A DNA stretch of 64,000 nt from IMG/VR virus record IMGVR_UViG_3300028888_000051, positions 163,384-227,383 of that record; one strand, given 5' to 3'. The notes below the pieces were generated by a model. The model ran no database searches. It was given only the letters and a program-made list of their open reading frames with translations, and was not told where the DNA came from. Source of the stretch: a virus (Duplodnaviria; Heunggongvirae; Uroviricota; Caudoviricetes). Below are positions 2,741 to 60,337 of the stretch, piece after piece. The position numbers and the translations under genes are program-made. Positions within the stretch are counted from its first letter, which is position 1, and each line of letters starts with the position of its first letter.

Positions 2741-3298
2741 ATGCAAATTTATGGTAATCCTAATTTATCTGATAAATTTTTTGTTTATTTAGAAGATAAT
2801 AGTATTAATTATGTAAGAGATTTTGAAACAGCTAAGGGTTATATTCAAAATCCAAATTATAAAAAATGGTTTGGAAAAACTTTATATTGTACAAATGAAG
2901 ATATAGTAAAAGCTTATGATGGTAAATTGTACTTAAAAAGCAAAGTTCCAGAAAATCCAAATGAAATAAAAATATATGATAATAAATCTTTTTTTATTAA
3001 TAATTGTAAAAAATATATTGAAAATACATTAAATGATTTGAGTATTGAATATGGTTATGTATCTTTTTATCAATTAATATCTTGGAAAGATTCAAAAATA
3101 TTAAAAAACAAACAATTAGCTGAAAAAATGTTAAATTATCGTGATAAATTATATAATTTCTATTCAAAAATATACAATAAACATAAAAAACAACTAGAAA
3201 ATACATCAGAATTATTAGATTTATCAAATATTTACACAGAATTTTTAGAAAATATTCCAAAATTTAAAAAAGTTAAAGAAAATGAAACAAACAATTAG
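2741..3298 (+). CDS. hypothetical protein (185 aa)
   Basis: ORF with strong AAAGGAGA RBS; overlaps the next gene by 17 nt. Confidence 0.55.
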   Translation: MQIYGNPNLSDKFFVYLEDNSINYVRDFETAKGYIQNPNYKKWFGKTLYCTNEDIVKAYDGKLYLKSKVPENPNEIKIYDNKSFFINNCKKYIENTLNDLSIEYGYVSFYQLISWKDSKILKNKQLAEKMLNYRDKLYNFYSKIYNKHKKQLENTSELLDLSNIYTEFLENIPKFKKVKENETNN

Positions 3299-4184
3299 AT
3301 TATATATAATACCTACTTATAAAAATCCTTATGTAGATGAATATTATCTATTTGATCAAAATAATAAAAATACACTAGATGTAGTATGGTTAGATAATGC
3401 TTTAATTGAATTAAAAAATAATTATAATATTTTACAAACAGAAATTTGTGGGGGAGAAATAACAGTATTATCTGATTTTTATTTTAATATTTTGTTTCAA
3501 TTAATAAAAATGAATTGTAATAAAATTATTGTATCTACAAATTTTATAGATTTTAATAAATCTATAATAAATCTTTGTGATATAATTAATGTAAAATATA
3601 ATTTTAATGGTTATAGTAAATATAAAACTATTGTTTATAACAATATAAAGGCAGCAATAGCTGAAAATAAAATTATTAATTTAAAATCACTAGATATATC
3701 TTGTAAAAACAATCATAAATTAATTATTGAAGACTTAAATAGATTAAAAATAAAATCTTGGGAAATTATTCCATATCATCAATCTATTTATTCAAAAGCT
3801 ATTCCATTAAATTATACTGAATATGAAGAATTAATAAGAAAATATTTATTTTCAGCAAAAGATATGAAGTTTGCTTTTCAAAATAAACTTCAATTAGATG
3901 AAATCTTACCAATAGATAACTATAATATTAAAAATATTTATATTACACCGAATAATAAATTTGCCATAACAGAATTTAACAAAAACAATAAATTTAAATT
4001 CGTTGAATATGATAATTTATCTAATTTACAGAAAAAAATAGAAGAAATGGAAAATTTACGTGATAATTTTTGTTATAATTGTGATTCTAAATTACGATGT
4101 CTAGCAAATAGATTAATAAATTTAAATTATACTGGTAAAAGTTGTAGTGGTTTTAAAGATTTAATAAAATATTATAACAAATAA
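3282..4184 (+). CDS. radical-SAM-like paralogue lacking the Cys triad (possible pseudo-enzyme)
   Basis: GGE motif (EICGGEIT) and the following STNF segment sit at the same distance from the N-terminus as in the four rSAM paralogues at 21.7-25.5 kb. CxxxCxxC is replaced by YKNPYVDE. Cys-rich C-terminus CYNCDSKLRC..SC. Confidence 0.35.
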   Translation: MKQTIRLYIIPTYKNPYVDEYYLFDQNNKNTLDVVWLDNALIELKNNYNILQTEICGGEITVLSDFYFNILFQLIKMNCNKIIVSTNFIDFNKSIINLCDIINVKYNFNGYSKYKTIVYNNIKAAIAENKIINLKSLDISCKNNHKLIIEDLNRLKIKSWEIIPYHQSIYSKAIPLNYTEYEELIRKYLFSAKDMKFAFQNKLQLDEILPIDNYNIKNIYITPNNKFAITEFNKNNKFKFVEYDNLSNLQKKIEEMENLRDNFCYNCDSKLRCLANRLINLNYTGKSCSGFKDLIKYYNK

Positions 4185-5195: not shown

Positions 5196-7061
5196 ATGAA
5201 ATTTAATATACGCCGGATAGAAATTGAAAATTTTAGAAGTATACAATCTAAGGTTACAATTAATATTAAACCTGGTCTATATTCTATTGAAGGTATAAAT
5301 AATGATGAAAAAACCAGTACGAATGGAGCGGGAAAATCTTCATTAATTTCAGCTTTATATTGGTGTTTAACTGGCAATGCTTTAACAAATGAAGCATTAG
5401 CCGATGATGTCATAAACGCTAAGGTTGGTAAGAATTGTAAAGTAAGTGTTTTTATTGAATCATTACAAGGTGATATAAAAATCACTAGGACAAGAGGAGA
5501 TTCTGAATTTGGTAATAATTTATTTCTTGAAATAGCAGATCAAGATTTAACTTGTCATAAAGTTGCGGATACTCAAACAAGAATTAATCAATTGTTTAAG
5601 ATTCCGTTTGATTTATTACATAGTACTATCATGATGACTCACGACATTAAGTCTGCTTTTTCTGAACTTACTCCACAACAACGTGTACAAACTTTAGAAA
5701 GTATACGTGATTATTCTATTTGGGATAAAGTTAGAGATGAAGCAAATAAAGATATCAAAATATATAACAAAGAAATACAGGAGCTTAATTTGAAATTAAG
5801 TAACATGAATGGTAGTAAGCAAACATATGAAAAAATGATTGCTGCTGCGGGAGAAAACTATAAAGTAGTTGTTAAATCTTTTGATAAAATCGAAATTGAT
5901 AATAAAATTAATAGTCTAATAGAAGAAAATAAAAACTATGCTATTGAAATAGCAAATTTAGAATCTGATATTAAGGAATTTAATAATTTTATTGAAAAAA
6001 ATACAGATAATTCTTTACAAAAAAGACTTAATGAGATTACTGATACTGCTAGCAATATTAAACTTTCACTTCAGAGTGCGGAATACGAACGGAAAGAGAA
6101 AGTAAAGGATATTGATATTATCAATGCTTGGTTTAAAAATGATAAATGTCCTACCTGCGGTCATTTATTGGATAGAACAGAAGAAGAAAAAGCTGTAAAA
6201 TCTAGCCATCGTGATGAATTAAATAAACAGCTCAATCTAATTGATGAAAAAGTAAAAAAATTAAATAATGATATTGCTTTAAAGCGAGAAGAGTGGGCAC
6301 AAGTAAATACTCAATTGAAGGTTAGTGAAAAAACTTTAACAGATTTTAGAGCTAAATTGAGTGAAAGTAATAATAAGATAAATATTCTTAAGAGTAAAGA
6401 GCTTGCAAATACGCGAGAGTTAGCTAAGCTTGAGTTAGAAAAAAATACTCACTCTTCTCAAGTAGATAAGTTAGACAAAGATATTATCTCTTATAAAAAA
6501 GAAATAGAGTCAATCTCAGCTGGCGAAGCTATCATCAATGAACAACTTAAGTTACTTGAAAATAAAAAAGAGTTATCTGATTACTTTTTTAAGTTACTTG
6601 GTAGTAAAGGTGAGTTAAGGCCTTATCTTTTAAAACAAGATATTTGTTATTTAAATAACTGTATGCAAACATATATACATCAATTTTTTGAAAATACTGA
6701 AGTTGAATTACGTTTAGAAGGTCCAAATATAGAGATTTTAATAAATAGTAATGGTATTAAGAAAAAAGTAACAAGCTTATCGGGTGGTGAAAAAAAGCGC
6801 CTTAATATTGCTATTCAACTTGGTCTATATGATTTAATACAAGCTACTTCACAAGTATGTTTTAATGTACTTTGGTTAGATGAAATTGAATCAGAATTAG
6901 ATCAAGCAGGTGTAAATCAATTAATTAATATAATTGAAGATAAATCTAATGATGCTGAAACTGTATTTTGGATTACAAATCATCCAAACGTTAAGGAAAG
7001 TATTACAAATAAAATTATATGTACTAAATCTTTAGGTGTAACAACTATTGAGGAGAGATAA
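5196..7061 (+). CDS. Rad50/SbcC-type recombination ATPase (T4 gp46-like)
   Basis: Walker A NGAGKSS; long coiled coil with central zinc hook CPTCGH; ABC signature LSGGEKKR; Walker B LWLDEIE. Confidence 0.9.
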   Translation: MKFNIRRIEIENFRSIQSKVTINIKPGLYSIEGINNDEKTSTNGAGKSSLISALYWCLTGNALTNEALADDVINAKVGKNCKVSVFIESLQGDIKITRTRGDSEFGNNLFLEIADQDLTCHKVADTQTRINQLFKIPFDLLHSTIMMTHDIKSAFSELTPQQRVQTLESIRDYSIWDKVRDEANKDIKIYNKEIQELNLKLSNMNGSKQTYEKMIAAAGENYKVVVKSFDKIEIDNKINSLIEENKNYAIEIANLESDIKEFNNFIEKNTDNSLQKRLNEITDTASNIKLSLQSAEYERKEKVKDIDIINAWFKNDKCPTCGHLLDRTEEEKAVKSSHRDELNKQLNLIDEKVKKLNNDIALKREEWAQVNTQLKVSEKTLTDFRAKLSESNNKINILKSKELANTRELAKLELEKNTHSSQVDKLDKDIISYKKEIESISAGEAIINEQLKLLENKKELSDYFFKLLGSKGELRPYLLKQDICYLNNCMQTYIHQFFENTEVELRLEGPNIEILINSNGIKKKVTSLSGGEKKRLNIAIQLGLYDLIQATSQVCFNVLWLDEIESELDQAGVNQLINIIEDKSNDAETVFWITNHPNVKESITNKIICTKSLGVTTIEER

Positions 7062-7064
7062 TTA

Positions 7065-8099
7065 ATGAAAATAATGGTTTTTGGAGATATACATTTTCAT
7101 AATTCACATCGTTTTTCAAATATTGAACCTCAAGGATATACAACTAGAGAAATTGAACAATATAATTGTGCAAATACATTAATTAAAATAGCCAAAGAAG
7201 AAAATATTGATAAAGTTGTATTTTTAGGTGATGCTTGGCAAGCTGTTGGAGATACAATTTCTGCTGAAACGCAATCAATTATGATTGAATTTTTTGCTCA
7301 ATTGAGAAGATATTTACCAAATTTAGCAGTAATTCTTGGTAATCATGATTTAATTAATAATGATCCAACTATAAATAAACTTAATTTTCTTAAATATATG
7401 CCTCCAATTGAATTTTTTTCAAAACCTGAGGTAAAAAATGAGTTTGTTTATATGCCTTATTGTTTAAATGACGATGAAGCTATTCGTTTTTTAGAAAATA
7501 TTTCAGAAAAACAAAATAAAATAGTTTTTTCACATTTAGAATTAGGAGGAATAAATTTGGGTAATGGTATTTTTACTCAAAAAGGCGTTCCATTAGATTT
7601 ACTTAAACAATTTAAAATGACTTTACAAGGACACTATCATTCAGGTGGAAGTTATGGTCATAAAATTCAAATAGCTGGTTCTACACAAAGGCTTTCTTTT
7701 AAAGATAAAGGTATTTCACGTAATAATATTATTATTTATAATACTGATACTGATAAAATTATTAGAAAAAGTTTTGAAAGTCCAGATTGGTTAGTATTTG
7801 ATGATGATAACATAGAGAATATTCTTAAAATAGACAATAATAATTACGTTAAGGTTGATTTAACCAGTGATATTTTATTAACATCTGAAATAAAAACTAA
7901 ATTAGAACAAGTAAAAAATAAAACAGTACATATAGATTTAACACGTATATCTATAAATAAACAAATTACAGAAGAAATATCAGAAAAAGAAGATAATTTA
8001 GATGTAATAAGAAAATTTATTATTAAATCTAATAATACAGATGATAAAAAAGAACAATTAATACAAGAAGGAGTAAGATTATTAAATAAAATTAGTTAA
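7065..8099 (+). CDS. Mre11/SbcD-type nuclease (T4 gp47-like)
   Basis: Calcineurin-like phosphoesterase motifs GDIH, LGDAW, GNHD, SHLE, GHYH; directly follows the Rad50-like gene. Confidence 0.9.
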   Translation: MKIMVFGDIHFHNSHRFSNIEPQGYTTREIEQYNCANTLIKIAKEENIDKVVFLGDAWQAVGDTISAETQSIMIEFFAQLRRYLPNLAVILGNHDLINNDPTINKLNFLKYMPPIEFFSKPEVKNEFVYMPYCLNDDEAIRFLENISEKQNKIVFSHLELGGINLGNGIFTQKGVPLDLLKQFKMTLQGHYHSGGSYGHKIQIAGSTQRLSFKDKGISRNNIIIYNTDTDKIIRKSFESPDWLVFDDDNIENILKIDNNNYVKVDLTSDILLTSEIKTKLEQVKNKTVHIDLTRISINKQITEEISEKEDNLDVIRKFIIKSNNTDDKKEQLIQEGVRLLNKIS

Positions 8100-8202: not shown

Positions 8203-9027
8203 ATGGAAAAAAGTTATAATGAAGAATGGATGAAAGATATTTTAAGTAGGAGTAAAGAAGCAATGGATGATTCATCTGGTTCATATCCTTCAACTGAATG
8301 GGTACAATATAAAAAAGGTTTCAAAAAGAGTATTACTTTTAAATTGATGCCTGCAAATAGTAAAGAAAACAATGTTTTTAGTCATATAGTTGCTCAACAT
8401 TGGATTCAAACATCAGATGGTAAAACAAAAAGATTCGTTTGTCCAGAAGAAACTGTACATTTGAAAGGTCAACATGTAAAATGCCCAGTTTGTGAAGCTA
8501 AACGTAAATTAAAAGCATTAGGTTTTACTGATGAGCAATTGAGTGTTGAAGGTAAATTTGGTTTAGTACCTGTATTTGATCCTAAATTTACTTCTAATGC
8601 AAAAGTTGTAGTTCTTCAGTCTGATGAAAAACAAGATTGGGATAGAGCTCATATTTCTGTATTACAACAGAATGGTACTTTCATGACTGTTTGGTTAGCT
8701 CAAAAATATGCTAGTAACGAAATTCCTAATTTTACTGAATTAGCATCTAGTAATCCTATTAAATTTTCTCGTCCAACAGATTCAGGTAAATGGGAACGTG
8801 AATTTAGTTTTAATGTATTTAATCCTTCTAGTGATGTTTTAGCAAAATTAAAAGAAGAAAATGAAGCATTAACTTTACCTGATTTGTGGAAAATGCCTTC
8901 AGATCAAGAGTTTATTGAAATTAGTCAATTGATGGAAGATATGCAAAAAAATTATCTTGCTGCTAGAGATACAATGACTAATACTTCTACTGATACTTCT
9001 ACTGTAGAGGATGACATTCCATTCTAA
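8203..9027 (+). CDS. gp32-like single-stranded DNA-binding protein with bacterial-SSB-like DDIPF C-terminal tip
   Basis: Collinear with T4 gp32 by eye (ITFKLMPANSKEN..; zinc site H..C..CPVCEA). Acidic Thr/Ser/Asp tail ends in VEDDIPF. Confidence 0.8.
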   Translation: MEKSYNEEWMKDILSRSKEAMDDSSGSYPSTEWVQYKKGFKKSITFKLMPANSKENNVFSHIVAQHWIQTSDGKTKRFVCPEETVHLKGQHVKCPVCEAKRKLKALGFTDEQLSVEGKFGLVPVFDPKFTSNAKVVVLQSDEKQDWDRAHISVLQQNGTFMTVWLAQKYASNEIPNFTELASSNPIKFSRPTDSGKWEREFSFNVFNPSSDVLAKLKEENEALTLPDLWKMPSDQEFIEISQLMEDMQKNYLAARDTMTNTSTDTSTVEDDIPF

Positions 9028-9044
9028 GTCATCCTAATTGTGGT

Positions 9045-9088
9045 GGTGTGGCTGGTTTTTTACATGAGAGTTTCCTTCCAGCCACACC
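9045..9088 (+). promoter_or_regulatory. G+C-rich perfect 11-bp inverted repeat (GGTGTGGCTGG / CCAGCCACACC, 22-nt loop) abutting the RBS of the HNH gene
   Basis: Read directly; the 3' arm is followed immediately by AGAGGAA and ATG 9101; composition is atypical for this genome. Confidence 0.5.
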
Positions 9089-9100
9089 AGAGGAATTTAA

Positions 9101-11552: not shown

Positions 11553-12092
11553 ATGACTAAAGTAAATATGATTGTTGCTATTGGTCCAGATAATATAATT
11601 GGATATAGTAATAAATTAGCTTGGCATTCAAAAAAAGATCTTGAGCATTTTAAAAATATAACTTTAAATAGACCAGTAATATTTGGAACAACAACTTTTT
11701 TTGGTTTACCTAAATATCCATTACCAAATAGATTAAATATTGTATTAGATAATAGTGAATATAAAGTATTTAATATCAATGCCATAAATGATAATAAAGG
11801 TGGTTGGATTGAAGCAACTTCAGTTGAAAGTGCCTTAGAATTTTGTAAAAATTTTGATAATATATTTATTTGTGGAGGAGCATCTATTTATAAATATTGT
11901 TTAGAAAAAAATTTAATAGATTGTGCATATATAACAAAAGTGAATTGTAAATTAGAAAATAGAGATGATTATATAAAATTTCCATTTGATATTAATAGAT
12001 ATTTAAATTATGAAAAATGGGATGCTAAATTAGAAGAAACAGTTTTTGATGAAGAAATTCAATTAGAATTCTGGAAATATATTAAAAAATAA
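11553..12092 (+). CDS. folA: dihydrofolate reductase
   Basis: MIVAIGPDNIIGYSNKLAWHSKKDLEHFKNIT, IFGTTTF and ICGGASIYKY match DHFR signature regions. Confidence 0.85.
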   Translation: MTKVNMIVAIGPDNIIGYSNKLAWHSKKDLEHFKNITLNRPVIFGTTTFFGLPKYPLPNRLNIVLDNSEYKVFNINAINDNKGGWIEATSVESALEFCKNFDNIFICGGASIYKYCLEKNLIDCAYITKVNCKLENRDDYIKFPFDINRYLNYEKWDAKLEETVFDEEIQLEFWKYIKK

Positions 12093-19472: not shown

Positions 19473-20246
19473 ATGTTTATAAAAATAATTAAATTCATGT
19501 TTAGTTGGTTTAATAAAAAAGAAAAGATCGAAGAATCAAAACCTGTTGAAGTACAAGAAAAACAGGAATCAAAACCAATTACAGTATCAATTGAAAAAGA
19601 AAATGAAAAAATTAAATTAACATGGTTATTTTTACGTGAAACATTATATAAAGTTAATAATAATCTTAATAAGAATGATTGTGATTATTATTATGAAGCT
19701 TTAAATAAAATACTTCCTCAATATGAAATTAATACTAAACTCAGAGTTTGTCATTTTTTGGCACAAATTTTACATGAAAGTGGGCATTTAAAATATAAAT
19801 CTGAAAATTTAAATTATTCTGCGAAAGCTTTACGTTCTGTTTTTGGCAAATATTTTAAAACAGATGAAATCGCAAAAGCATATGAAAGAAAGCCAGAAAA
19901 AATTGCTAATAGAGTATATGCTAATCGCATGGGTAATCGTAATGAAGCGAGTGGTGATGGGTATAAATTTCGTGGGCGTGGACTTATTCAACTCACTGGA
20001 GCTAACAATTATAAGATTTGTGGACAAGATTTAGGTTTAGACTTAGTAAAAAATCCAGATTTAATTATATCTGATCCAGAAATTTGTGTAAAAACAGCTT
20101 GTTGGTTCTGGAATAAGAACAAATTAAATGAATTAGCAGATAAAGATGATATAAATGCTATAACAAAATGTATTAATGGTGGCTTAAATGGAATCGATGA
20201 TCGCCGTAAAATATTAAATTTAGCTAAAGATAAAATAAATATATAA
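19473..20246 (+). CDS. endolysin, glycoside hydrolase family 19 (chitinase-like lysozyme)
   Basis: FLAQILHESGHLKYKSENLNYS and YKFRGRGLIQLTGANNY are GH19/COG3179-type signatures. About 60-aa Lys/Glu-rich N-terminal extension. Confidence 0.8.
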   Translation: MFIKIIKFMFSWFNKKEKIEESKPVEVQEKQESKPITVSIEKENEKIKLTWLFLRETLYKVNNNLNKNDCDYYYEALNKILPQYEINTKLRVCHFLAQILHESGHLKYKSENLNYSAKALRSVFGKYFKTDEIAKAYERKPEKIANRVYANRMGNRNEASGDGYKFRGRGLIQLTGANNYKICGQDLGLDLVKNPDLIISDPEICVKTACWFWNKNKLNELADKDDINAITKCINGGLNGIDDRRKILNLAKDKINI

Positions 20247-20818: not shown

Positions 20819-21715
20819 ATGTCAAATGAATTAGTATTAAATTCAGAATGGACGCCTTTTTTAATAGAAAACAGAGCTTCTATTACATTTGATAAATTTT
20901 TAGATTTAATTAAACAATTAGATAACAATAGTTCACCAAATTTATGGACAAAATGGAAAAATTATGCTAATCAAGTAGTTATAGAAACACCAAATTACTA
21001 TTTTAAGTTATATGAAGATGATTATTTATGTGGTTCATTTTGGTCATTAATTCGCTCTACTTTAGGAGAGATATATACAAAATATTTTAATATTTTGTGG
21101 GATGTTAATATTATAAAGCAAAATAGTAAAATATATACACTCGAAAGACGTCAAAAATTAAATGTATGTATACCGAATTCAATTTTATATACTGATTTAC
21201 TTCTTAATTGGTCAAATACACTTAAAAAACTAGAAAATGAACTTTTATTATCAGAAATATGTCAACAACTTAAACCATATATTCCAGAATTAGCAGAACT
21301 TAAGTTGATACGTAATTGTATAAATAAATATGCAGATTATGCTATTACTGAAGATAATAATATTGTACTTTTAGATGATTCCGATTGGTTTATAGCTATG
21401 GTTGATAAAAACGGTAAATGGTTAAATTCAAAATTTAAAGGTTATAATATAATTTCTAGTTTAGGAGAAACAATTTTTGCTCCAGAGGGTTATTTTGATA
21501 AAGGAAATATAACTAAACATGAAGAATTTACAAATAAATGGCAAATTTATATGGAAAATATTAAAACTACAGAAATAGAAGGAATTTTATTTGATCAACG
21601 TGAACAAATGCTCAAAGATAATATATCTTTGATATTTAATCAAAAACTTTTGCCTAATCAAAATATAAAATCTTTTGATTCAGTAGGTGATTTACTTAAA
21701 ATTGGTTTTGAATAA
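20819..21715 (+). CDS. hypothetical protein (298 aa from the internal ATG)
   Basis: Track ORF starts at 20789 inside the upstream gene. ATG at 20819 (MSNELVL) follows the upstream stop and is the more likely start. The 3' end overlaps the convergent rSAM gene by 20 nt. Confidence 0.5.
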   Translation: MSNELVLNSEWTPFLIENRASITFDKFLDLIKQLDNNSSPNLWTKWKNYANQVVIETPNYYFKLYEDDYLCGSFWSLIRSTLGEIYTKYFNILWDVNIIKQNSKIYTLERRQKLNVCIPNSILYTDLLLNWSNTLKKLENELLLSEICQQLKPYIPELAELKLIRNCINKYADYAITEDNNIVLLDDSDWFIAMVDKNGKWLNSKFKGYNIISSLGETIFAPEGYFDKGNITKHEEFTNKWQIYMENIKTTEIEGILFDQREQMLKDNISLIFNQKLLPNQNIKSFDSVGDLLKIGFE

Positions 21716-22742
21716 ATTCTCTATCACAGATAACACATTCATCAGAATCTATATAGGCGCAATAATTTAGTTGATGTCCACATTTAGCTGTAAGAAATTC
21801 TAAGCAATTACCTTCTTTTTCATTTAATTCATTTCGTGTATGTTTATTTCTATGATTTAATTGCATACGATGATTATCATCTGATTCATTGAAATTTCTA
21901 TACAAATCATCTGCACGATAAATTATATTAAAAAGTTTATCATATAAACCTGGGCAATCTTCTTTAAATTTAATTAAAAATTTTAAAAAATCTTCTCTTT
22001 TTGGAAAAAAACCCGGTAATCTTTTTTCCATTAATTGTTTAGCTTCCATGTATTGTTCAATTTTTGATAAGTTTTCATGAATAGGTTTAATTCCACCTGG
22101 AGAAGGTTGTTTAAAAAACATAGAAGTATGATATTTATTCATAAAATCATTAAAAGAAAATTCACCATTCAGATATTTGGTAATTATATCTTGAGTTAAA
22201 ATGGTACAAGTGTTAAAATTTAATGTTGGATATTTTTCATGTAAATTTAACATGTTATTTGACCAATTTTCTTGCATTTTTGGTAAATGAAAACGACCGA
22301 TCGTATCATAAGATGTAACAAGCCATACTTGATTTATTAATTCTGGTTTTCCGGCTTGAATATACATTTTTTTCATAATATCCAAAGAAGTATATAAATC
22401 TTTTTGTGAACCTATTGTAAGGGTACACATAATCCATACTTCACGTATTTTACCTGAAATTTGTAATTCTGCAGTTTTTTGCATAAGATTAAAAAATTTA
22501 TTTTTGACTTCATCTACATCAAGTTGACCTTGAAAAAATTCTCCACCTATATAAGATACTGTGTTATATGGAATCATTTTTTTGTTATCAGATAAAAAAT
22601 TATAAGCATCATCAAGTGCCTTAATTTTTAATTCTGTTGGTGTAAAGCTATTACTGTTTGCATTATAACAAAATACACATTTTTGATTACATTGATGCCA
22701 TAATTCAAACTGTAAACTCTTTTTTTCATTTATATCCATCAT
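21696..22742 (-). CDS. radical SAM enzyme, paralogue D (348 aa)
   Basis: CNQKCVFC (CxxxCxxC) at residues 18-25; YIGGEFF; C-terminal CGHQLNYCAYIDSDECVICD. Confidence 0.8.
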   Translation of the reverse strand: MMDINEKKSLQFELWHQCNQKCVFCYNANSNSFTPTELKIKALDDAYNFLSDNKKMIPYNTVSYIGGEFFQGQLDVDEVKNKFFNLMQKTAELQISGKIREVWIMCTLTIGSQKDLYTSLDIMKKMYIQAGKPELINQVWLVTSYDTIGRFHLPKMQENWSNNMLNLHEKYPTLNFNTCTILTQDIITKYLNGEFSFNDFMNKYHTSMFFKQPSPGGIKPIHENLSKIEQYMEAKQLMEKRLPGFFPKREDFLKFLIKFKEDCPGLYDKLFNIIYRADDLYRNFNESDDNHRMQLNHRNKHTRNELNEKEGNCLEFLTAKCGHQLNYCAYIDSDECVICDREFIQNQF

Positions 22743-23659
22743 TAGTCTCCTATCATTTCTAAAAAGTTTTCAACATCACTTCTTGGATGTATGTTAGAAT
22801 CAAAATATCCATAATTGTTTTCATCACAATAGGTATTCTTTTTATTTTCTGAATTATGTCTATCATTCATAATATAAAAATCTTTATCGTCAAATGAAGA
22901 ATAACATGTATCACTATGATTTACAATATTTATAAAATTTTCTAAATCATCTTTTGTAAACATTTTTGTTTCATAAGTATATTGTAAAAATTTAAGAAAG
23001 GTTTCTCTTCTCGGAAAAAAATTAGATAAAATTTTATTTTCGAAATCTTCAACATTTTTACATAGATGACCATAACCAGTCATTGGTAGCATATAATTTG
23101 TAAAGCAATTATAATTTTCATTGAATTCTTTTAAATTTAAACGATTAGACAACACTGCTTCTAACATAGCTTGAGTAACAATCATTTCAACATGAAGTTT
23201 TAAATTTGGATAATTTTTATGTAAAAATAACATATTATTTTGCCAATTTTTTAAAGTGTTATTATTAAATCTACCAATTATATCCCAAGAAGTACAAATC
23301 ATAAATTGATTCTGAAAGTTCTTTATATATTCACAAAATTCTAATAATTCAGAATTATCATCAAACATTAAAGCTGTTGTAATAAGACAGCGTTTAGCTA
23401 TTCCCATTTTAATTTTATTTATAAAACAGTCTATAATTTTATAAAAGTATTTTTTAACTTCAGCTGTATCTATTTCACCATTAAAAAATTCTCCACCGAT
23501 TATACCAAAATCAGAATATTTATCAGCTTCTTTTGTATTAAGAATATCTAAAACTTTTTTCATACATTTAACTTTATCTCTATGTCTAGGTATACCGTTA
23601 TTATAGCAAAATTTACATCCAAATGAACATTGTTTCCATAATTCAAATTGTAAAAACAT
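22742..23659 (-). CDS. radical SAM enzyme, paralogue C (305 aa), C-terminal Cys module degenerate
   Basis: CSFGCKFC; IIGGEFF; C-terminus YCDENNYGYFDSN lacks the EC..CD part. Confidence 0.8.
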   Translation of the reverse strand: MFLQFELWKQCSFGCKFCYNNGIPRHRDKVKCMKKVLDILNTKEADKYSDFGIIGGEFFNGEIDTAEVKKYFYKIIDCFINKIKMGIAKRCLITTALMFDDNSELLEFCEYIKNFQNQFMICTSWDIIGRFNNNTLKNWQNNMLFLHKNYPNLKLHVEMIVTQAMLEAVLSNRLNLKEFNENYNCFTNYMLPMTGYGHLCKNVEDFENKILSNFFPRRETFLKFLQYTYETKMFTKDDLENFINIVNHSDTCYSSFDDKDFYIMNDRHNSENKKNTYCDENNYGYFDSNIHPRSDVENFLEMIGD

Positions 23660-23660
23660 A

Positions 23661-24584
23661 TTACTCTCCTAGTATAAGTAAATCACAAAGCATACATTCA
23701 TCTGAATCTGCATAACATCTATATAATTCACTATGACCACATTCGGTAATATTTTCTTTACCATCAGATAAAATTGGTTGTTGAGTTATATCATTATTTT
23801 TATTACGTAAACCAGTATATTTATAAATCGCCGAAGCGTTAGTTGAACTATACATATTAGTATATATCTGTGGAAAGTTTTCTTTCAAATATATACAAAA
23901 ATTAAGAAAATCTTCACGTTTGAAGAAAAAGTCATTTAATTTAAAACCAGAATGTATTGGATGAGGATATAAAAAACAAAAATTACATCCTTTTAGTTCT
24001 TCTTCTAAAAAATATTTAAAATCAAATTTGTTAGACATAATATCATCAATAAGATATTGAGTTAAAATCATTTGAACTCCAACTGCATAATTATATCTAT
24101 CTCTAAATTTTTTGATATTTTCTAAAGCTAATAATCTTTTTTCTTCTGAAGGATATCTATATTTTATATCATAAGAAAAATTTACATCTATAAATCGCAT
24201 GTCTCCTGTTTTTTCTTTGATTCTGTCTATAACACGAAATAAAAATGCTGGATCATACATTCCATTAGTTACAGTTGAATAGCGACATCTATAAGAAGTA
24301 CTAACTAATAATATTTTATTTATGATGTCATCTATTAAAAGCATAAATTCATCTTGTATATCTTTATCGGTTATAAAATACAATTCACCACCTAAAAGAG
24401 ATATACCATCAGCAAATTTATCTTTCCAATCAATATAATCCAAATTTTTTCTTATTTTATGTATTTCTTCAATAAGTCTAGATTTATCCCAAACTTCACG
24501 ATTTTTTCGTAAACAGAATTTACAGTTATTGTTACAATTTGGCCAAAGTGAATATTGATTCATATAATGTTTAATTTCTAACAT
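23661..24584 (-). CDS. radical SAM enzyme, paralogue B (307 aa)
   Basis: CNNNCKFC; LLGGELY; C-terminal CGHSELYRCYADSDECMLCD. Confidence 0.8.
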   Translation of the reverse strand: MLEIKHYMNQYSLWPNCNNNCKFCLRKNREVWDKSRLIEEIHKIRKNLDYIDWKDKFADGISLLGGELYFITDKDIQDEFMLLIDDIINKILLVSTSYRCRYSTVTNGMYDPAFLFRVIDRIKEKTGDMRFIDVNFSYDIKYRYPSEEKRLLALENIKKFRDRYNYAVGVQMILTQYLIDDIMSNKFDFKYFLEEELKGCNFCFLYPHPIHSGFKLNDFFFKREDFLNFCIYLKENFPQIYTNMYSSTNASAIYKYTGLRNKNNDITQQPILSDGKENITECGHSELYRCYADSDECMLCDLLILGE

Positions 24585-25451
24585 TTACATTTTCTCCATT
24601 ATTTCTTTTAGCACTTTACAATCACAAACAAAACATTCATTTGAATCAGAATAACATTTTTTAAAATTTTCTGAATGACCACATTTACTTTTATTTGATG
24701 AGATATCAACTAGTTTTCCATTTTCAGATTTTTGTAAAATAATATTTTGATTTAAAAGAAAATTATTACAATATTCTGTACCATAACCTGGAAGTTGTTC
24801 ATTAAGTTTTAGAATAGTTTTAAAAACAGTTTCTCTTGTTGGAGCTTTTATGTCTTTTCCAAATTTTATATAGGGTATTGTATTTACTTTAACGTTATAG
24901 TTATTTTCATACTCAGCTATGTTAAATTTTTCAGATAATACATCATTACAAAAACTTCTGGTTAAAATAATATTGACATATATAAGTAACTCAGGAAATA
25001 AATTTCTAATTTCAGTGAGATTAAAATAAAATTGTTTCATAGAAAAAGAATTAGAAAATCTTCCATCTCCATCACCAGAAGTAGTAAAATGTATTCTATT
25101 TTCTAATTTATAATCTTTTATCATATTTAATATTGGTAAAAGAAGTTCATGAATATCATATAAAATATTTGTATTAATATAACATAATTCAATTTCATTT
25201 TTTAACATTTTTTCACAAGTTAATTTGAATAATTTAAATAATTGTGAATTTATTATTGTATTTTTTTCTGCAAATATTTCACCACCAACGAATAGTATAT
25301 GTGTATCAGTTAAGTCTTTTACTGCATTATATATTAATTTTATCGATTCAAGTTGTTCTTCATGAGTTTGTTGTTTTTCTCTTTTTTGCCAGCAAAATTT
25401 ACAATTATTTGGACAATTATTCCAAAGAATGAATTCATGTATAGGTAACAT
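24585..25451 (-). CDS. radical SAM enzyme, paralogue A (288 aa)
   Basis: CPNNCKFC; FVGGEIF; C-terminal CGHSENFKKCYSDSNECFVCDC; first gene of the four-gene operon. Confidence 0.8.
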   Translation of the reverse strand: MLPIHEFILWNNCPNNCKFCWQKREKQQTHEEQLESIKLIYNAVKDLTDTHILFVGGEIFAEKNTIINSQLFKLFKLTCEKMLKNEIELCYINTNILYDIHELLLPILNMIKDYKLENRIHFTTSGDGDGRFSNSFSMKQFYFNLTEIRNLFPELLIYVNIILTRSFCNDVLSEKFNIAEYENNYNVKVNTIPYIKFGKDIKAPTRETVFKTILKLNEQLPGYGTEYCNNFLLNQNIILQKSENGKLVDISSNKSKCGHSENFKKCYSDSNECFVCDCKVLKEIMEKM

Positions 25452-29362: not shown

Positions 29363-30163
29363 CTAAGAAAATAACTTTACAAGCTTTTGCCAGAATGTAT
29401 CTGGATTTTTAACTTTTGCAACTATTACCTCTTCTTTTTTATTTTTAATAATAGATTGGCCAGAGAGTAAATAGTTTTTAAGATCATCATACTCAGCATT
29501 ATACCTCGCTTTATATTCTGGATACTTGATCTTTCTATATGTATATAATTTTTCTAAAAATTTTTCTTTCGTAAGAATATTTTTATTAAAACATATACTT
29601 TGGAAGATTTTATAAGCACCACCTTGTCCATGTTGTATAATAGTAGACTTAACTGCTGCTTGAATAGCATTATCTTCAGAAGCCCAAGATGTTAATTTAT
29701 TAAAATTACTATTGCCGTTTTTATCCATACGAATATAAACAGGAATTATTTCTTTTTTTAATAAAAAATTATCATATGAATTTCTAAAAGATTTTTCAGT
29801 AGCTATTTTCTTCCATATATTTATAAAATTTTTATTACCAGCATATGCAGCTCTATAACCACCTGCTTGTATTAATATATCATAATACTTATAATTATTA
29901 TCTTTTAAATATGTTAAAAAGAAATCAAAAGTAGATGGTAAATTGTTCTTTCTCCAAGTAGATATTTGCCACTTTCCATAAGAATAACCACCATATCCAT
30001 CCTTACTTATTGCTTGATACCCTAATTTACCACATTCATATTTTGCTACAATATCATGCTTTGTATGAAGAGCATCATAATTTGTTTTGGCTTGAACTGT
30101 TACTATATTTCCAAAAATAACTAAAGTTATATAATAACTTAACCAAAAGATTTGTTTAATCAT
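29363..30163 (-). CDS. secreted protein, possibly lysozyme-like glycoside hydrolase
   Basis: N-terminal signal peptide (hydrophobic core, VQA cleavage-like site). DGYGGYSYGKWQIS resembles muramidase/VgrG3-type motifs (weak, from memory). Confidence 0.35.
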   Translation of the reverse strand: MIKQIFWLSYYITLVIFGNIVTVQAKTNYDALHTKHDIVAKYECGKLGYQAISKDGYGGYSYGKWQISTWRKNNLPSTFDFFLTYLKDNNYKYYDILIQAGGYRAAYAGNKNFINIWKKIATEKSFRNSYDNFLLKKEIIPVYIRMDKNGNSNFNKLTSWASEDNAIQAAVKSTIIQHGQGGAYKIFQSICFNKNILTKEKFLEKLYTYRKIKYPEYKARYNAEYDDLKNYLLSGQSIIKNKKEEVIVAKVKNPDTFWQKLVKLFS

Positions 30164-36250: not shown

Positions 36251-37018
36251 TTATTTTACACTGTTTATAAATGGAATTGGAGCTGAGCCATAAATATTTA
36301 CTGGTAATTTTCCATCCCATTTTTGTACAGCTTCATAAGCAACTAAATTTTGATTTTTACTTAGGGCTTCAGAACGAATAGCCATTGACTTAGCCTCTGC
36401 TTCAGCAGCAAGAACTTTTTGTTTAGCTTCTTCTTGGACTTCAGCTGTTCTATTCCTTGCTTCTTCAGCCTTTTGTGTTGCTACAACTTTAGCTTCAATT
36501 GCTCTTTCAAAAGCATCTGTATATTCAATATTATTTAAAGAAACTGAACTTATTTTTATATAAAAAGCTGTCAAAGTTGTATTTAAATCTCTTTTAATTT
36601 CATCTGTAGCTTTTTCACGATTAGCAACAAGATTTGCAGCATCCCATTTACCAATCACATCTTTAACAACAGCCTCAGCATTAGGACGTAATACTTTTTC
36701 TTCATAATTTTTACCAATTTCACGATGTAAATTAATAATATTATCTAAATCAAGACGATAATTGAGAGTAATTTTCATATTAGCCGTTTGAATATCTTTT
36801 GTATAGGTCTCTATTTCCATTGTATATTTTTGAGTTTTACCTTCATATTCAATTACATTACCACCAAATGGCATATAAAAATATAAACCTTCTTCTAATG
36901 GCTTTTCTGAAGTAATTTCACCCCACATTGTCTTCAAACCACGATTACCTGTATCAATTTGCTCACCACATCCAGTTAATGAGCAAACAATAAATAAAAC
37001 AGTAAAAATTTTTTTCAT
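36251..37018 (-). CDS. SPFH/band-7 (prohibitin-like) lipoprotein
   Basis: Lipobox SLTGC after a signal peptide; SPFH core; Ala/Glu-rich coiled coil QKAEEARNRTAEVQEEAKQKVLAAEAEAK; WDGKLP ending typical of the prohibitin/HflKC class. Confidence 0.8.
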   Translation of the reverse strand: MKKIFTVLFIVCSLTGCGEQIDTGNRGLKTMWGEITSEKPLEEGLYFYMPFGGNVIEYEGKTQKYTMEIETYTKDIQTANMKITLNYRLDLDNIINLHREIGKNYEEKVLRPNAEAVVKDVIGKWDAANLVANREKATDEIKRDLNTTLTAFYIKISSVSLNNIEYTDAFERAIEAKVVATQKAEEARNRTAEVQEEAKQKVLAAEAEAKSMAIRSEALSKNQNLVAYEAVQKWDGKLPVNIYGSAPIPFINSVK

Positions 37019-37882: not shown

Positions 37883-38470
37883 TTATTGATGGTTTTTAAC
37901 TATTTCATCAGTAACACCATAATCAATTGCTTCTTCTGCTGACATCCAAAAATCACGTTCACAATCTTTTTTAACTTGATTAATATCTTTATTTGTAGCA
38001 TTAGCGATCATTTGCATTAACATATCTTGTAATCTGCTAACTTCTTCTAATGTAATTTTCATATCATGAACATTTGCTTGCATACCACTACTAACAGAAT
38101 GAAGCATATATCTAGCATGAGGCATTATTTTACGCATACCTTTTGTACCAGATAATGCAATCATAGCATCCATAGAGGCAACTTCACCTGATACAATAGT
38201 TGATACAGGACATGAAATCATATTCATAGTATCAATAATCTGTAAACCAGCTGTTACACTTCCACCTGGTCCACTAACAATCATTGTAATAGGTTTATCT
38301 TTATCTTCTGCTTCTAAATATAAAAGTTGAGCAACAACACTTTCGGCTAATTCATCATCAACTTTACCACAACATAAAATTAATCTATCACGAATTAATC
38401 TTGAAGTAATATCAACTTGACGTTCGTTACCATTAGAATCTTTATAAATAACTGATGGAATTCCTATCAT
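37883..38470 (-). CDS. clpP: ATP-dependent Clp protease proteolytic subunit
   Basis: GPGGSVTAGLQIIDTM, GEVASMDAM (catalytic Ser context), MLHSVSSG (His) and WMSAEEAIDYGVTDEI are collinear with ClpP. Confidence 0.85.
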   Translation of the reverse strand: MIGIPSVIYKDSNGNERQVDITSRLIRDRLILCCGKVDDELAESVVAQLLYLEAEDKDKPITMIVSGPGGSVTAGLQIIDTMNMISCPVSTIVSGEVASMDAMIALSGTKGMRKIMPHARYMLHSVSSGMQANVHDMKITLEEVSRLQDMLMQMIANATNKDINQVKKDCERDFWMSAEEAIDYGVTDEIVKNHQ

Positions 38471-41027: not shown

Positions 41028-42377
41028 TTAAGCTATAATATTATCTGGTCCATTATTAATTGATAAATCATATTTTTGTTTATAAAAAGGACCTACTTTA
41101 TTTAGCATTTTTTTAACCGTAGAGTGAATACTTTCATTTTCTAAATCAATTATGCCTTCAGGAACCTCTTGCTTACCACGAAGTAAAATACGAGCAATAA
41201 GTTGACCTAATTCAAAGCACATAGATTCATCAAAACCCCGAGTTGTAATCGCTGGAGTACCAATTCTAATTGCAGAAGATTCAGATGGTTTAGTATCACC
41301 CGGCATCATGTTTTTATTACAAATAATATGATATGATGTTAATAAGTCTTCAGCCTGTTTACCATTTATACCAGAATTTCTAAGGTCTACTAATACCATA
41401 TGATTTTCTGAGCCATTACTAATGAATCCTATTTTATTTTCTTTATCGAAATCTCTTATACCATTGATAAGTGCTTGCATATTACAATATACTTGTTCTA
41501 TATAATCTTTAAATTCTGGTTTGAGAGCTTCAATAAAACATTGTGCTTTAGCAGCAACAAGTGCTTCATTTGGACCACCTTGAATTTTTGGAAAACACCC
41601 ACTGTTAATTTTACTACAAAGTTTTTGGTCATTCCAAAGAATTATACCACCACGAGGTCCTCTTAAAGTTTTGTGTGTTGTAGAAGTGATCACATCACAC
41701 CATTTAGTTGGATCATATTTATCTTTCCATAAATGAGCAGCAATAAATCCCATTACATGAGCTGAATCAGACATAAGATAACATTTTGTTTCTTCATCCC
41801 TACCAAGATTATATACATCTACCAATTTCCTTATATATTCATAATTAATTCGTTTAGAATAAGCTGAAGCTCCAACAACTAACATTCTTGGATGATATTG
41901 AAGTAATTTTTGTTTAATTTCTTCATAATTCAATTCACCATTTTCATCAAGACCATAATATACAGGATTATATATATGACCTGTTAATGAAGCTTTAGAG
42001 TAGTGTGTCAAATGTCCGCCATATTCTATGCCCATTCCAAGTACTGTATCACCTGGTTTTAAAAGACCTGCATATACAGCTTGATTAGCCTGAGAGCCAG
42101 AATGAGGTTGAACACAAGCAAAATTTACATTAAATAATTCTTTAGCTTTTTCTATAGCATAATTTTCTACTTCATTTATTACTTCACATCCAGCATAATG
42201 ACGTCCCTGTTTAGAAACTTCATTTGGAAATCCTTCTGCATACTTTACAGATAAATGACTTCCCAAAAGATCAAGAATATCTTGACTTGGATAGTTTTCT
42301 GAAGCTATTAATTCAATACCATCATTAAGACGATTTGTCTCTTTGCTTTCTAATTGTTGTAATTTTTGATCAATCAT
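41028..42377 (-). CDS. glyA: serine hydroxymethyltransferase
   Basis: LIASENY, YAEGFP, VQPHSGSQAN, GGHLTH and TTHKTLRGPRGG (PLP-Lys context) are all present in order. Confidence 0.95.
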   Translation of the reverse strand: MIDQKLQQLESKETNRLNDGIELIASENYPSQDILDLLGSHLSVKYAEGFPNEVSKQGRHYAGCEVINEVENYAIEKAKELFNVNFACVQPHSGSQANQAVYAGLLKPGDTVLGMGIEYGGHLTHYSKASLTGHIYNPVYYGLDENGELNYEEIKQKLLQYHPRMLVVGASAYSKRINYEYIRKLVDVYNLGRDEETKCYLMSDSAHVMGFIAAHLWKDKYDPTKWCDVITSTTHKTLRGPRGGIILWNDQKLCSKINSGCFPKIQGGPNEALVAAKAQCFIEALKPEFKDYIEQVYCNMQALINGIRDFDKENKIGFISNGSENHMVLVDLRNSGINGKQAEDLLTSYHIICNKNMMPGDTKPSESSAIRIGTPAITTRGFDESMCFELGQLIARILLRGKQEVPEGIIDLENESIHSTVKKMLNKVGPFYKQKYDLSINNGPDNIIA

Positions 42378-50991: not shown

Positions 50992-51210
50992 ATGTATGAA
51001 AAATTAATAGATCTTAAAGATAATTTTTTATTTTGTATTGCAACTACATTTGTTGGAATTTTAATTATGATAATAGCTAGTGTTATTATAATTATAACAC
51101 TTCCAATGTATTATTTATTTTGGATAAATCCAGTATTTGAAATTTATCAAAATTTAATTTGGAAAATATATGATATATTATTTCAAATTGGATCAGATGA
51201 TGAAATTTAA
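50992..51210 (+). CDS. small membrane protein (72 aa, two hydrophobic segments); holin-like topology
   Basis: FLFCIATTFVGILIMIIASVIIIITLPMYYLFWINPVF; AAAGGAAA RBS. Confidence 0.45.
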   Translation: MYEKLIDLKDNFLFCIATTFVGILIMIIASVIIIITLPMYYLFWINPVFEIYQNLIWKIYDILFQIGSDDEI

Positions 51211-54200
51211 ATTAAGTCTTGCAATTCTTCAGAAGATTGATCTATAAAATTTGAATAATCATTTACTTTTTCTTTTATTTGATTAGAAGAAATATATTCA
51301 TATTGCGGAAAATCTGAATAATTAAGCTGTGCATTATATATAAAACCAACAATTACATCAGCTAAATCTTTTAATTCAGTAGTTCGAGTTACTTTTCCTC
51401 TATCAAAAACAAGAGCCGATAATTCTTTTCTGAGTTTTGGACATATTCCTACTTTTACCTGTCCTAATTCCATTAAAGTAGATGCATTAACATAAGGTTC
51501 AAGTTTTATATCGACTGAAACTTTATTTACTACTTCGAAACATCCCGATTTAGCTAAATTTTGTTGAAAAATTTCTCCATTCCATTGATCGCTTGATACT
51601 GTATGAATTAGCATATTACGTTCAATTACTAAATTTATTAAAAAAGTTTCTATTGCATGTATATCTATTTTATTTCTTGCATTCACAGCTATAAGTAAAT
51701 CAACTACATATATTGTTTCATTTTCTTTTTTATTTTCATTATAACGCCATTCTTTATGACCAATACATATACCAGCATCACATTGTCCAGAATCACCACC
51801 TCCTGCTAAATCTACATGACAATAACGTTTTGCAAAAGGAGCTCTTTTAAATATCCATCTACCATCTGTTAATTGTTCCCATAAATTATATTCATCTAGT
51901 AAAGCTAATATATCATTATTATCACTTATATCAGCTTTAATATTAAATTCTGGAGGCAATTCAGCATCTTCAATTTTTGATATATCTTTAAAGACTGTAC
52001 TGTTATCTACAGTTGTCATTCCTGCAATATCTTGAATAGACTGATCTAATTGTAATTCAAATTTTTCTTTATATACAGTTGGAACATTTATTACTTCACA
52101 TCCAATGGGTGGTATATAATTTCCATCTTCTAAAGCTTTCAATTCACCAGGATCGGTAAATATTTTAGAAGGAATTGAGCCATTACCAACAAGAACAGGA
52201 AATGTAGAGCCATCACCTAAAAACTCAGGATCTTCTTTAACTTCCCAAAGCCGAGGCATAAGAATAAGAATAGATGGATCATTTTTTGGCAATCGACGTA
52301 TGTATTCACCAATAGGACTATTTGTTGTACGAGCTGATGATACAACTGACTGAAATACTAAAGGACTTCCTTGAAAACGTGAACTAAAACGATTATCAAC
52401 TGAATTAAGAAGTGCCAAAGCTTCATCTACACCTTTTTCATTGATCTCATCCATAAAGCTATTTACTATATTCAAACCTATAGTATGAGTTATACCTGAA
52501 CCAGATGTAATAATAATATTGTCTGGAAAATATATCGTGCCTGTCGATTTTTCCACATTAAATGGTATTGGACAATGTGGATCCGATAAATCAAAATTTT
52601 CAAAAGATTGCATTCGCATAACTCTTTGAAAACACGGCATTGTTTCCATAAGTTTAACAAATGGTAATAAATTTGTTTCATAAACTTGTTTTAAAGTCAT
52701 AGAAATAATAACATTTGCTATTGTTGCATCACTATCTATATTAAATACTGCTCTAGGATAACGTAAACATAATATACGATATAAAACATATAAAAAAGCT
52801 TTACGAGCAATTGTTGACTTACCACAATTATGTGCAATTATACCAGCCTTTAAAGCAAAATTATGATTTTTTTCTGTAGTTATATCATAAACTTGTTGTT
52901 TACCTATATATTCTATAGAAATTATTTTATGATTGTATATTTTTTTACGCTTGTAATTTTCTTTAGCCCCTAAAGTAGGATCATACCAAGGCTCTCTTGT
53001 ATGAATAAATGCTAATAATTCAATGTATTTTTGATTTTCTTTTCCATGGAATCTTGCAATAGTAGCTAATACTTGTTTAGCCAATATAATTGCTTTTTCT
53101 TCAGGACTTTTGTTGGCTTTTAAATTACGCATATTTTCAGCCATTTTTTTAGAAATATTTCTAGCCTTTTCTGTTTTATTTCTTTCTATTAAAGTTTTAC
53201 TTGCTCTTTGTCTATATTCTTCACTATGTGGACCATTCCAACCGGCAAGCGAAGCTTTTCTTTGGTGTTCTGAATCTTGATGTAGTTTATTCCATCCAAT
53301 TTTTCTTTTTGCTTCTATCTCTTCATAATCTAAGCGAGCTTTATAGGTAATATGACTTTTTATTCCTTTTTGTCTTCTGTATTCTTTAAATTCATCACCT
53401 CTAATTGAAGCATTATATTCTTTCCATCTTCTACCTCCAACTTTAGCGTGATATTCCCAATGATATTTGTGAGGTATAATAGCTAAATTTTGAGGTCTAT
53501 CATCTAATTTATTAAAATTTTTATGGTGAACAACTTGTCCAGTTTTATATAAAGTTTTCCATTTACCTACTATTTGATATCTTTTTTCCCATTTTTCAGT
53601 AGTATTATTTTTTATTTGAATATATCCTTTATCACTAATTTTTGAATAATAAGGCATCATAGATTCACCAGATTTTAATCCAGTATCTATACTTTTCCAT
53701 TTATTTTTTCTTGTTAAAAATCTATGATCTGATGTACATTTAATTATTTCACCATTGTCTAAAGTTATTTTATACACATCTTTTATACCACTACAAAATA
53801 CATTAATTATCTTATCTGGTTCCCAAGTTTTATTAAATGTATTAAATGATAATACCCATTCATTATTATAATTATTAAGTAATTCATAAATTGTTTTATT
53901 ACCATTTAAAGTAGCTACTATCGTATCACCGGTTAAGCAACCAATACTTCCACCAAATATAGTTTTTCTTACTGGTGAGCCTTCCCTAAACATATATTCA
54001 AGTTGTTGTCGCCAATAAGGATATAATGTAGCATTACTATTATACATATAAAATTTACCAGATAAAAATTCTTCAATATTAGGCATAGGTCGTCTATATA
54101 AAAGATTATCAATTTGATCTGTTAAATCAGAATCCTGATTTGTTAATGTCAAATATAAAGCAATACGTTTTTGTATTTCTTGTTGCTTTTTAAATTCATC

Positions 54201-54344
54201 TGGCATATAATGCTCTTCATAATATGCTAAAATGTCTATAAAATCTTGTGACATAATAACATTTTGAAGTTCATTTGCATTATTAAATGAAACTATTGGA
54301 AGATTTTCTAATTTTTTTGCAATATCAGTAGGAAGTTGTTCCAT
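51207..54344 (-). CDS. terL: terminase large subunit, interrupted by an intein in the Walker A motif
   Basis: The exteins join to FGGSIG|CGKST (P-loop). Walker B-like SFMDEINE. Nuclease-domain pattern CHVDLAGGGD...DAGICIGH. Confidence 0.85.
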   Translation of the reverse strand: MEQLPTDIAKKLENLPIVSFNNANELQNVIMSQDFIDILAYYEEHYMPDEFKKQQEIQKRIALYLTLTNQDSDLTDQIDNLLYRRPMPNIEEFLSGKFYMYNSNATLYPYWRQQLEYMFREGSPVRKTIFGGSIGCLTGDTIVATLNGNKTIYELLNNYNNEWVLSFNTFNKTWEPDKIINVFCSGIKDVYKITLDNGEIIKCTSDHRFLTRKNKWKSIDTGLKSGESMMPYYSKISDKGYIQIKNNTTEKWEKRYQIVGKWKTLYKTGQVVHHKNFNKLDDRPQNLAIIPHKYHWEYHAKVGGRRWKEYNASIRGDEFKEYRRQKGIKSHITYKARLDYEEIEAKRKIGWNKLHQDSEHQRKASLAGWNGPHSEEYRQRASKTLIERNKTEKARNISKKMAENMRNLKANKSPEEKAIILAKQVLATIARFHGKENQKYIELLAFIHTREPWYDPTLGAKENYKRKKIYNHKIISIEYIGKQQVYDITTEKNHNFALKAGIIAHNCGKSTIARKAFLYVLYRILCLRYPRAVFNIDSDATIANVIISMTLKQVYETNLLPFVKLMETMPCFQRVMRMQSFENFDLSDPHCPIPFNVEKSTGTIYFPDNIIITSGSGITHTIGLNIVNSFMDEINEKGVDEALALLNSVDNRFSSRFQGSPLVFQSVVSSARTTNSPIGEYIRRLPKNDPSILILMPRLWEVKEDPEFLGDGSTFPVLVGNGSIPSKIFTDPGELKALEDGNYIPPIGCEVINVPTVYKEKFELQLDQSIQDIAGMTTVDNSTVFKDISKIEDAELPPEFNIKADISDNNDILALLDEYNLWEQLTDGRWIFKRAPFAKRYCHVDLAGGGDSGQCDAGICIGHKEWRYNENKKENETIYVVDLLIAVNARNKIDIHAIETFLINLVIERNMLIHTVSSDQWNGEIFQQNLAKSGCFEVVNKVSVDIKLEPYVNASTLMELGQVKVGICPKLRKELSALVFDRGKVTRTTELKDLADVIVGFIYNAQLNYSDFPQYEYISSNQIKEKVNDYSNFIDQSSEELQDLI
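52827..53939 (-). mobile_element. class-1 intein (371 aa) with HNH endonuclease domain
   Basis: Starts CLTGDTIV; block B CTSDHRF; HNH core VVHHKNFNKLDDRPQNLAIIPHKYHWEYH; ends VYDITTEKNHNFALKAGIIAHN followed by the +1 Cys. Coordinates derived from residues 136-506 of the track ORF. Confidence 0.8.
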
Positions 54345-60326: not shown

Positions 60327-60337
60327 GGAGAAATAAA

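Follow-up and report, generated by a model that had tools for sequence, protein, structure and literature searches.

The tails of single-stranded-DNA-binding proteins (SSBs) decide which enzymes reach single-stranded DNA (ssDNA). Phage T7 gp2.5, a non-bacterial phage SSB, docks proteins through an acidic C-terminal tail that ends in an essential Phe and contacts the T7 polymerase and helicase; neither its fold nor its ending (it has no D-D-I-P-F motif) is that of the protein described here. The C-terminal tip of bacterial SSBs (SSB-Ct) recruits at least 12–17 partners (PMC3000357). The SSB of phage HK620 is of the bacterial type and ends in NDYPPF, its last six residues being required to recruit the phage protein Sak4 onto SSB-coated ssDNA (PMC5928155). 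More recently, a 2026 preprint has described Bas52_0087, a trigger of DRT10 from the Vequintavirus Escherichia phage RudolfGeigy. This SSB-like protein has two oligonucleotide/oligosaccharide-binding (OB) folds and ends in FDDDIPF, and the authors propose that it interferes with host SbcB/ExoI (10.64898/2026.04.29.721553). Here we describe a gene (8203–9027, plus strand) in a 64,000-nucleotide stretch of an uncultured virus (positions 163,384 to 227,383 of IMG/VR record IMGVR_UViG_3300028888_000051; henceforth the window), whose 274-aa product combines a predicted gp32-type SSB fold with the ending DDIPF. Such a tip on a gp32-fold protein has apparently not been described before, although the concept was anticipated by the phage SSB tips and Bas52_0087 mentioned above.

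The C-terminal tip and its conservation

The reading frame starts with ATG and stops at 9025–9027, and its translation ends in ...DTMTNTSTDTSTVEDDIPF* (last residues TSTVEDDIPF). The VEDDIPF ending reported in the preliminary description is therefore real, and the tip itself (9010–9024, plus strand, codons GAT GAC ATT CCA TTC) matches the bacterial SSB-Ct motif. It is preceded by a short, disordered Thr/Ser-rich linker (aa 264–269, 8992–9009, plus strand), the predicted local distance difference test score (pLDDT) being below 50 for aa 266–271. The Thr/Ser/Asp-rich linker noted earlier is thus present, but it is far from extensive: a confidently predicted helix runs to residue 263, leaving a linker of ~7 residues in a whole tail of ~11. 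Among the other open reading frames (ORFs) of the window, none terminates in PF or has an acidic-aromatic tip.

Loss of the tip in close relatives, together with a failure to bind host SSB-interacting proteins, had been named beforehand as the outcome that would speak against docking to the host SSB interactome. A word-indexed search recovered 100 full-length close relatives (40–100% identity) on contigs of up to 285 kb, all of them metagenomic and none from a cultured phage, and every one ends in [ILVM]-P-F (IPF in 79, MPF in 14, VPF in 5 and LPF in 2). The tip is therefore kept throughout this family. Pro at position -2 and Phe at -1 are present in all 100 (0 bits of entropy) and Asp at -5 in 94 (0.44 bits), giving the tail consensus D(-5)-x-[IMVL]-P-F, while entropy exceeds 3 bits at positions -16 to -8. 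P273 and F274, as the two are numbered in the window protein, are also among the residues that stay invariant when 65 homologues are aligned. Variation is seen at the acidic positions -4, -6 and -7; the mean between -10 and -4 is 2.9 Asp/Glu, with almost no Lys/Arg. Length varies too: between the conserved WKMP motif and the C-terminus the relatives have 42 to 131 residues, and some of their linkers are up to ~90 residues longer. The tip thus terminates a disordered segment and surpasses the linker before it in conservation, as expected of an SSB-Ct motif.

At the nucleotide level the tip codons vary synonymously among relatives (CCA/CCG/CCT/CCC, TTC/TTT, ATT/ATA, GAT/GAC), and therefore selection acts on the peptide. 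The tip is under strong purifying selection throughout the close family. Because every relative keeps the ending, we consider that it very probably serves as a protein-docking element, working in the manner of the bacterial SSB-Ct.

The gp32-type body and its relatives

The relationship of the body of the protein to gp32 is distant. The Pfam gp32 family (PF08804) scores 19.4 bits, below its gathering score of 26.8, with an E value of 1.1e-3 and over aa 47–113 only; the most diverged homologue, on contig L016, scores 20.9 bits. Identity to T4 gp32 is ~15%, and a direct hhalign comparison with it is non-significant (E 0.038), although the four zinc ligands are nevertheless in register. The window protein matched no PHROGs family and no NCBIfam entry, and it had no match by tblastn in the 50,697 phage genomes of INPHARED. 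Single-sequence (phmmer) and profile searches of the PDB sequences found no gp32, and the bacterial SSB family, a homotetrameric OB domain (PF00436), gave no match at E <= 1.

The assignment to the gp32 type is consequently made on structure, sequence alone being insufficient. An AlphaFold2 model built from a 65-sequence alignment (pLDDT 87, predicted template-modelling score 0.81) comprises a helix at residues 7–15, a disordered stretch at 22–30, a beta-rich core, a long helix at 234–263 (8902–8991, plus strand, pLDDT ~89–95) and a disordered tail at 264–274. The modelled core has the gp32 arrangement, an OB fold with an inserted zinc sub-domain, and is unlike the fold of bacterial SSBs. The zinc-binding sub-domain (8398–8493, plus strand) carries the ligands H66, C80, C94 and C97, invariant in the 65 homologues, in the spacing H-x13-C-x13-C-x2-C; this predicted metal site contains the motif H..C..CPVC and corresponds to H64, C77, C87 and C90 of T4 gp32 (GenBank record). 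The gp32-like body with a zinc site proposed in the preliminary description is in this way borne out by the model and by the invariant ligands, and on the model the body is a zinc-containing gp32-type OB-fold core. The protein would bind ssDNA and presumably acts as an SSB in replication or recombination.

The N-terminal element (aa 1–21, 8203–8265, plus strand) includes the first helix, has invariant N6 and W9 and is followed by the disordered aa 22–30. It begins with MEKSYNEEWMKDIL..., the T4 counterpart being MFKRKSTAEL, and neither KRKST nor the (K/R)3(S/T)2 'LAST' cooperativity motif is present at the N-terminus of the window protein. Its placement resembles that of the gp32 N-terminal cooperativity domain, and by analogy it may have a similar function.

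An exhaustive profile search of 1.84 billion representative proteins returned only 65 matches at E <= 1e-3, made up of the close family and a distant clade of proteins of 300–430 aa. The latter keep the His-Cys3 site and have an additional C-terminal Cys motif (AP.CFG...C..C...C). This motif sits after a long low-complexity linker (P0106–P0163) and looks like a small module of the zinc-ribbon type. The only cultured member of the distant clade is CDS0140 of Pseudomonas phage QdP_Psa3 (PV055685.1 96129–97202; L002:6001–7074), annotated as 'hypothetical protein', which is without the core zinc ligands and whose gene lies between genes for DnaB, primase and ligase and one for a UvsX-like recombinase.

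How far the tip extends among gp32 homologues, a check proposed at the outset, has a clear answer: it is universal in the close family, absent from T4-like gp32 and patchy in the distant clade. For the last of these, its frequency is that among the 65 matches of the representative-protein search, and in a crude neighbour-joining tree built from the core region the tip-bearing members are scattered: three fall together (P0110, P0116 and P0130), two are separate (P0154 and P0163), and variants of the VPLF type lie in another branch. This suggests several gains or losses. Among T4-like gp32 proteins (58–98% identical to T4) none of 120 has the tip, nor do eight diverse gp32 proteins of cultured phages (a Schizotequatrovirus, cyanophage S-PM2, a Campylobacter phage, three of the Ackermannviridae type and two Stenotrophomonas phages); it is also not present in orf54 of Lactobacillus phage LP65 (Herelleviridae), which has the gp32 fold. 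T4 gp32 itself, stated in the earlier description to end differently, does so in its GenBank record: its C-terminus there is ...ADDTDLDDLLNDL, with the ending ...DDTDLDDLLNDL and not IPF. The T4-like proteins share a terminal motif of their own, D/E-L-L-x-G-L (more than 70 of the 120; P0164–P0283), and its conservation suggests that canonical gp32 also ends in a short linear docking motif, but a different one.

Candidate partners of the tip

If the tip docks proteins, the question is which. The chances that host SSB-interacting proteins are its main clients seem to us about even. In such a scheme the window SSB would coat the phage ssDNA, and the terminal Phe and carboxylate of its exposed tip would enter the hydrophobic, basic 'SSB-Ct pocket' of genome-maintenance enzymes, which would become concentrated on phage DNA. 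The leading candidates would be a RecO or RecFOR-type loader for the bacterial-type RecA encoded by the phage, restart helicases and nucleases, and phage-encoded proteins of bacterial ancestry might use the tip as a handle as well. Both the peptide-pocket contact and the identity of the partners are what we infer from the likeness to SSB-Ct. The RecA gene (59232–60326, plus strand; PF00154 at 3.7e-77 plus RecA_C; TIGR02012 321 bits against a cutoff of 325) makes its product a candidate partner or client of the SSB. Among the scanned window ORFs (~81 of 227 kb inspected) no member of the RecO, RecR, PriA, RecQ or PF00436 SSB families was detected. We favour host recruitment because the match to the consensus is exact, the tip of canonical gp32 differs, and a RecA with no visible mediator would gain from host loaders of the RecO type.

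Several points weigh against this reading. On the sequence and synteny data, phage-encoded partners are equally plausible as host ones. The acidic tail of T7 gp2.5, with its terminal aromatic residue, serves contacts internal to the phage. So does the HK620 tip, whose contact with Sak4 is purely between phage proteins (PMC5928155). A linker of ~7 residues directly after a long helix may limit the reach of the tip when compared with the ~56 residues given for the linker of E. coli SSB. The genome was covered by the 64-kb window and ~17 kb of flanks out of 227 kb, and a second, bacterial-type SSB or phage enzymes with an SSB-Ct-binding pocket might be encoded beyond. Finally, the labels of the metagenome-assembled genomes (MAGs) in which related contigs are found (Bacilli for two, Succinivibrionaceae for one) probably reflect the binning of whole phage contigs by composition.

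The alternative that survives best is that the tip docks phage proteins only (for example Rad50/Mre11, RecA, helicase, primase or polymerase), and that it resembles the host tip by convergence or through inheritance with phage genes of bacterial origin. The gene order lends it substance: a Rad50/SbcC-like ATPase (5196–7061, plus strand; Pfam SMC_N, AAA_23 and SbcC_Walker_B) is encoded two genes upstream of the SSB gene and a Mre11/SbcD-like nuclease (7065–8099, plus strand; Pfam Metallophos) directly upstream, and the order Rad50-Mre11-SSB is kept in all 14 related loci. Localization of SbcC at replication forks in B. subtilis depends on the SSB C-terminus (PMC3000357), which makes the adjacent SbcCD-like pair of the phage a reasonable candidate for partnership. 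The Sak4 case shows that a phage recombination protein can require such a tip, and the C-terminal domain of T4 gp32 has T4 proteins as binding partners, as cited in the same source (PMC5928155). Recombinases are also close at hand. In L016, the relative that has diverged furthest (41% identity, ending ...AADEIPF), a RecA gene directly follows the SSB gene. A RecA_N-family recombinase gene comes after the SSB gene in four of four tip-bearing distant relatives, immediately in three and with one gene between in P0163, and these relatives have genes for DnaB, primase, Pol A and SbcCD nearby. That the tip tracks the neighbouring recombinase was nevertheless rejected, since SSB and recombinase are paired in the same way in QdP_Psa3 and LP65, which lack the tip; the pairing thus does not generally need it. 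The tip is therefore not simply a recombinase handle. Nor would an internal interface need to match D-D-x-I-P-F so closely, canonical gp32 using DLLxGL. Taking both sides together, we regard an exclusively phage-internal role as possible but somewhat unlikely.

A third reading keeps the host partners and reverses the outcome. As a decoy or competitor, an abundant phage SSB could titrate host SSB-interacting proteins (ExoI, RecJ or defence-linked factors) away from the host SSB, so that phage ssDNA is protected, or host repair or immunity disabled, rather than the enzymes being used productively. Competition with SbcB/ExoI has been proposed in the preprint on the FDDDIPF-ending Bas52_0087 (10.64898/2026.04.29.721553), and the identity and conservation of the motif fit sequestration as well as they fit recruitment, the two being indistinguishable from sequence data. 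However, the scaffold that carries the tip is predicted to bind DNA and its gene belongs to a recombination cluster, which favours productive recruitment, and we consider the decoy improbable. Weakest of all is regulation confined to the protein itself, the acidic tail folding back on its own ssDNA-binding groove with no external partner (as for E. coli SSB, T7 gp2.5 and the T4 gp32 C-terminal domain): the tail is indeed acidic, and self-interaction of SSB tails is documented (PMC3936761), but electrostatic back-binding needs no Pro-Phe kept in 100 of 100 relatives while the acidic positions vary, and the model leaves the tail undocked from the core, which makes this highly improbable.

Returning to host recruitment, a broader version can be offered tentatively, as an idea we think somewhat unlikely. 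Phage SSBs of non-bacterial fold (the present gp32-fold family, several branches of the Cys4-bearing sister clade and the Vequintavirus Bas52_0087) would have converged repeatedly and independently on the host tip, hijacking of the interactome would be a general strategy and a recurrent target or trigger of defence, and in the present jumbo-phage lineage the tip would let a T4-style SSB pass ssDNA on to host loaders of the RecFOR type, by which the phage's own bacterial-type RecA is assembled.

The surrounding genome and comparison with known systems

The window derives from an uncultured jumbo phage of gut or rumen origin with a genome of ~227 kb; an identical SSB is encoded on a contig of 227,378 bp (ENA ERZ27257205 k141_5434835). 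Its content is clearly phage (head maturation protease, tail proteins and an intein-containing terminase-like ORF), its GC content is ~25%, and no tRNA genes were found in the 64 kb. Two related contigs of 245–249 kb (L003 and L005), deposited in 'Bacilli bacterium' MAGs, are almost certainly mis-binned complete genomes of the same jumbo-phage lineage, and a 52-kb fragment with a related SSB lies in a Succinivibrionaceae MAG; genome collections gave no matches other than these.

Across the 14 loci examined, the genes around the SSB follow one order: Rad50/SbcC-like, Mre11/SbcD-like, SSB, HNH endonuclease, two unassigned genes and dihydrofolate reductase (DHFR; 11553–12092 in the window). The products of the first two are, on this arrangement, candidate phage partners of the tip. 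Just 3' of the SSB stop codon there is a GC-rich 12-bp hairpin (9044–9089, plus strand; folding free energy -28 kcal/mol, z -4.0). In 11 of 13 related loci a strong hairpin is found at this place too, with another sequence and often with a T-run after it. The element is probably a terminator or stabilises the mRNA. The conserved neighbouring ORFs at 3282, 4206, 9956 and 10517 had no Pfam or PHROG match, and profiles of 10–13 orthologues found nothing in the PDB.

Elsewhere in the window, next after the RecA gene come an ORF of 122 aa and one for a GapR-like DNA-binding protein (PF10073), the three spanning 59232–60965 on the plus strand; a bacterial-type RecA is unusual beside T4-style gp46/47-like and gp32-like genes. 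The terminase-large-subunit-like ORF (1045 aa, 51207–54344, minus strand) has intein (PF14890) and HNH matches and is probably interrupted by an intein; a large homing/HNH endonuclease gene (55218–57167) adjoins it. Four tandem paralogous ORFs of ~300 aa, two with weak Radical_SAM matches, occupy 21696–25451 (minus strand), and upstream of Rad50 there is a fifth paralogue (3282–4184, plus strand), which has a cluster of Cys residues at its C-terminus. Besides DHFR, the host-like accessory genes encode a GH19 lysin (19473–20246) and, on the minus strand, a VgrG3-like_C/Ntox47 protein (29363–30163), an SPFH/Band 7 protein (36251–37018), ClpP (37883–38470) and serine hydroxymethyltransferase (41028–42377). 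Thymidine kinase was also detected and so was a match to QueC, neither of them mapped to an ORF; the latter may be a sign of a pathway that modifies DNA or nucleotides. A second ClpP, GroEL, GroES and glutaredoxin are encoded immediately to the left of the window (L032:913–5603).

A gp32 fold with a bacterial tip amounts to a natural chimera of the two SSB systems that have been studied best, and with it one can ask cleanly whether the tip is enough by itself to link a foreign SSB to the interactome of bacteria. No established view is overturned by the combination. It does place a large gp32-like clade, mostly without Pfam or PHROG assignment ('hypothetical' even in QdP_Psa3), among the putative SSBs whose C-terminal modules can be exchanged. 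Considered alongside Bas52_0087, it suggests that mimicry of the tip may recur among phages, which would matter for recombineering tools and for defence systems that recognise phage SSBs.

With T4 and RB69 gp32 (PF08804) the window protein shares the His-Cys3 zinc site, in register, a three-part layout of N-terminal element, core and disordered acidic C-terminus, and a replication/recombination neighbourhood with gp46/47-like genes and DHFR. It differs from them in its extra long C-terminal helix, in the lack of KRKST and in its tail, which has ~11 residues and ends in D-D-I-P-F, whereas theirs, an amphipathic acidic tail, has ~50 and ends in D-L-L-x-G-L. The HK620 protein is a bacterial SSB homologue with a demonstrated phage partner in Sak4, while the core of the window protein has, as modelled, the gp32 fold. 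Bas52_0087 (408 aa, ending ...YSFDDDIPF) resembles it as a phage SSB-like protein of non-bacterial architecture with a host-type tip after a disordered acidic region. Its body, however, is unrelated, and it comes with a known host, E. coli, and genetic data, whereas the window phage is known from sequence alone. Homology between the two was considered and rejected, as hhalign aligns only their last six residues; with nothing else in common between Bas52_0087 and the window family, the tip was therefore acquired independently. Bacterial SSBs, finally, differ from the window protein in having the PF00436 homotetrameric OB domain as their body and a linker that is not so short, but the ends of the two are alike: the last five or six residues fit the SSB-Ct consensus (acidic, acidic, x, I/L, P, F-COOH; E. 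coli ...DFDDDIPF), and in both the tip closes a disordered segment of which it is the most conserved part.
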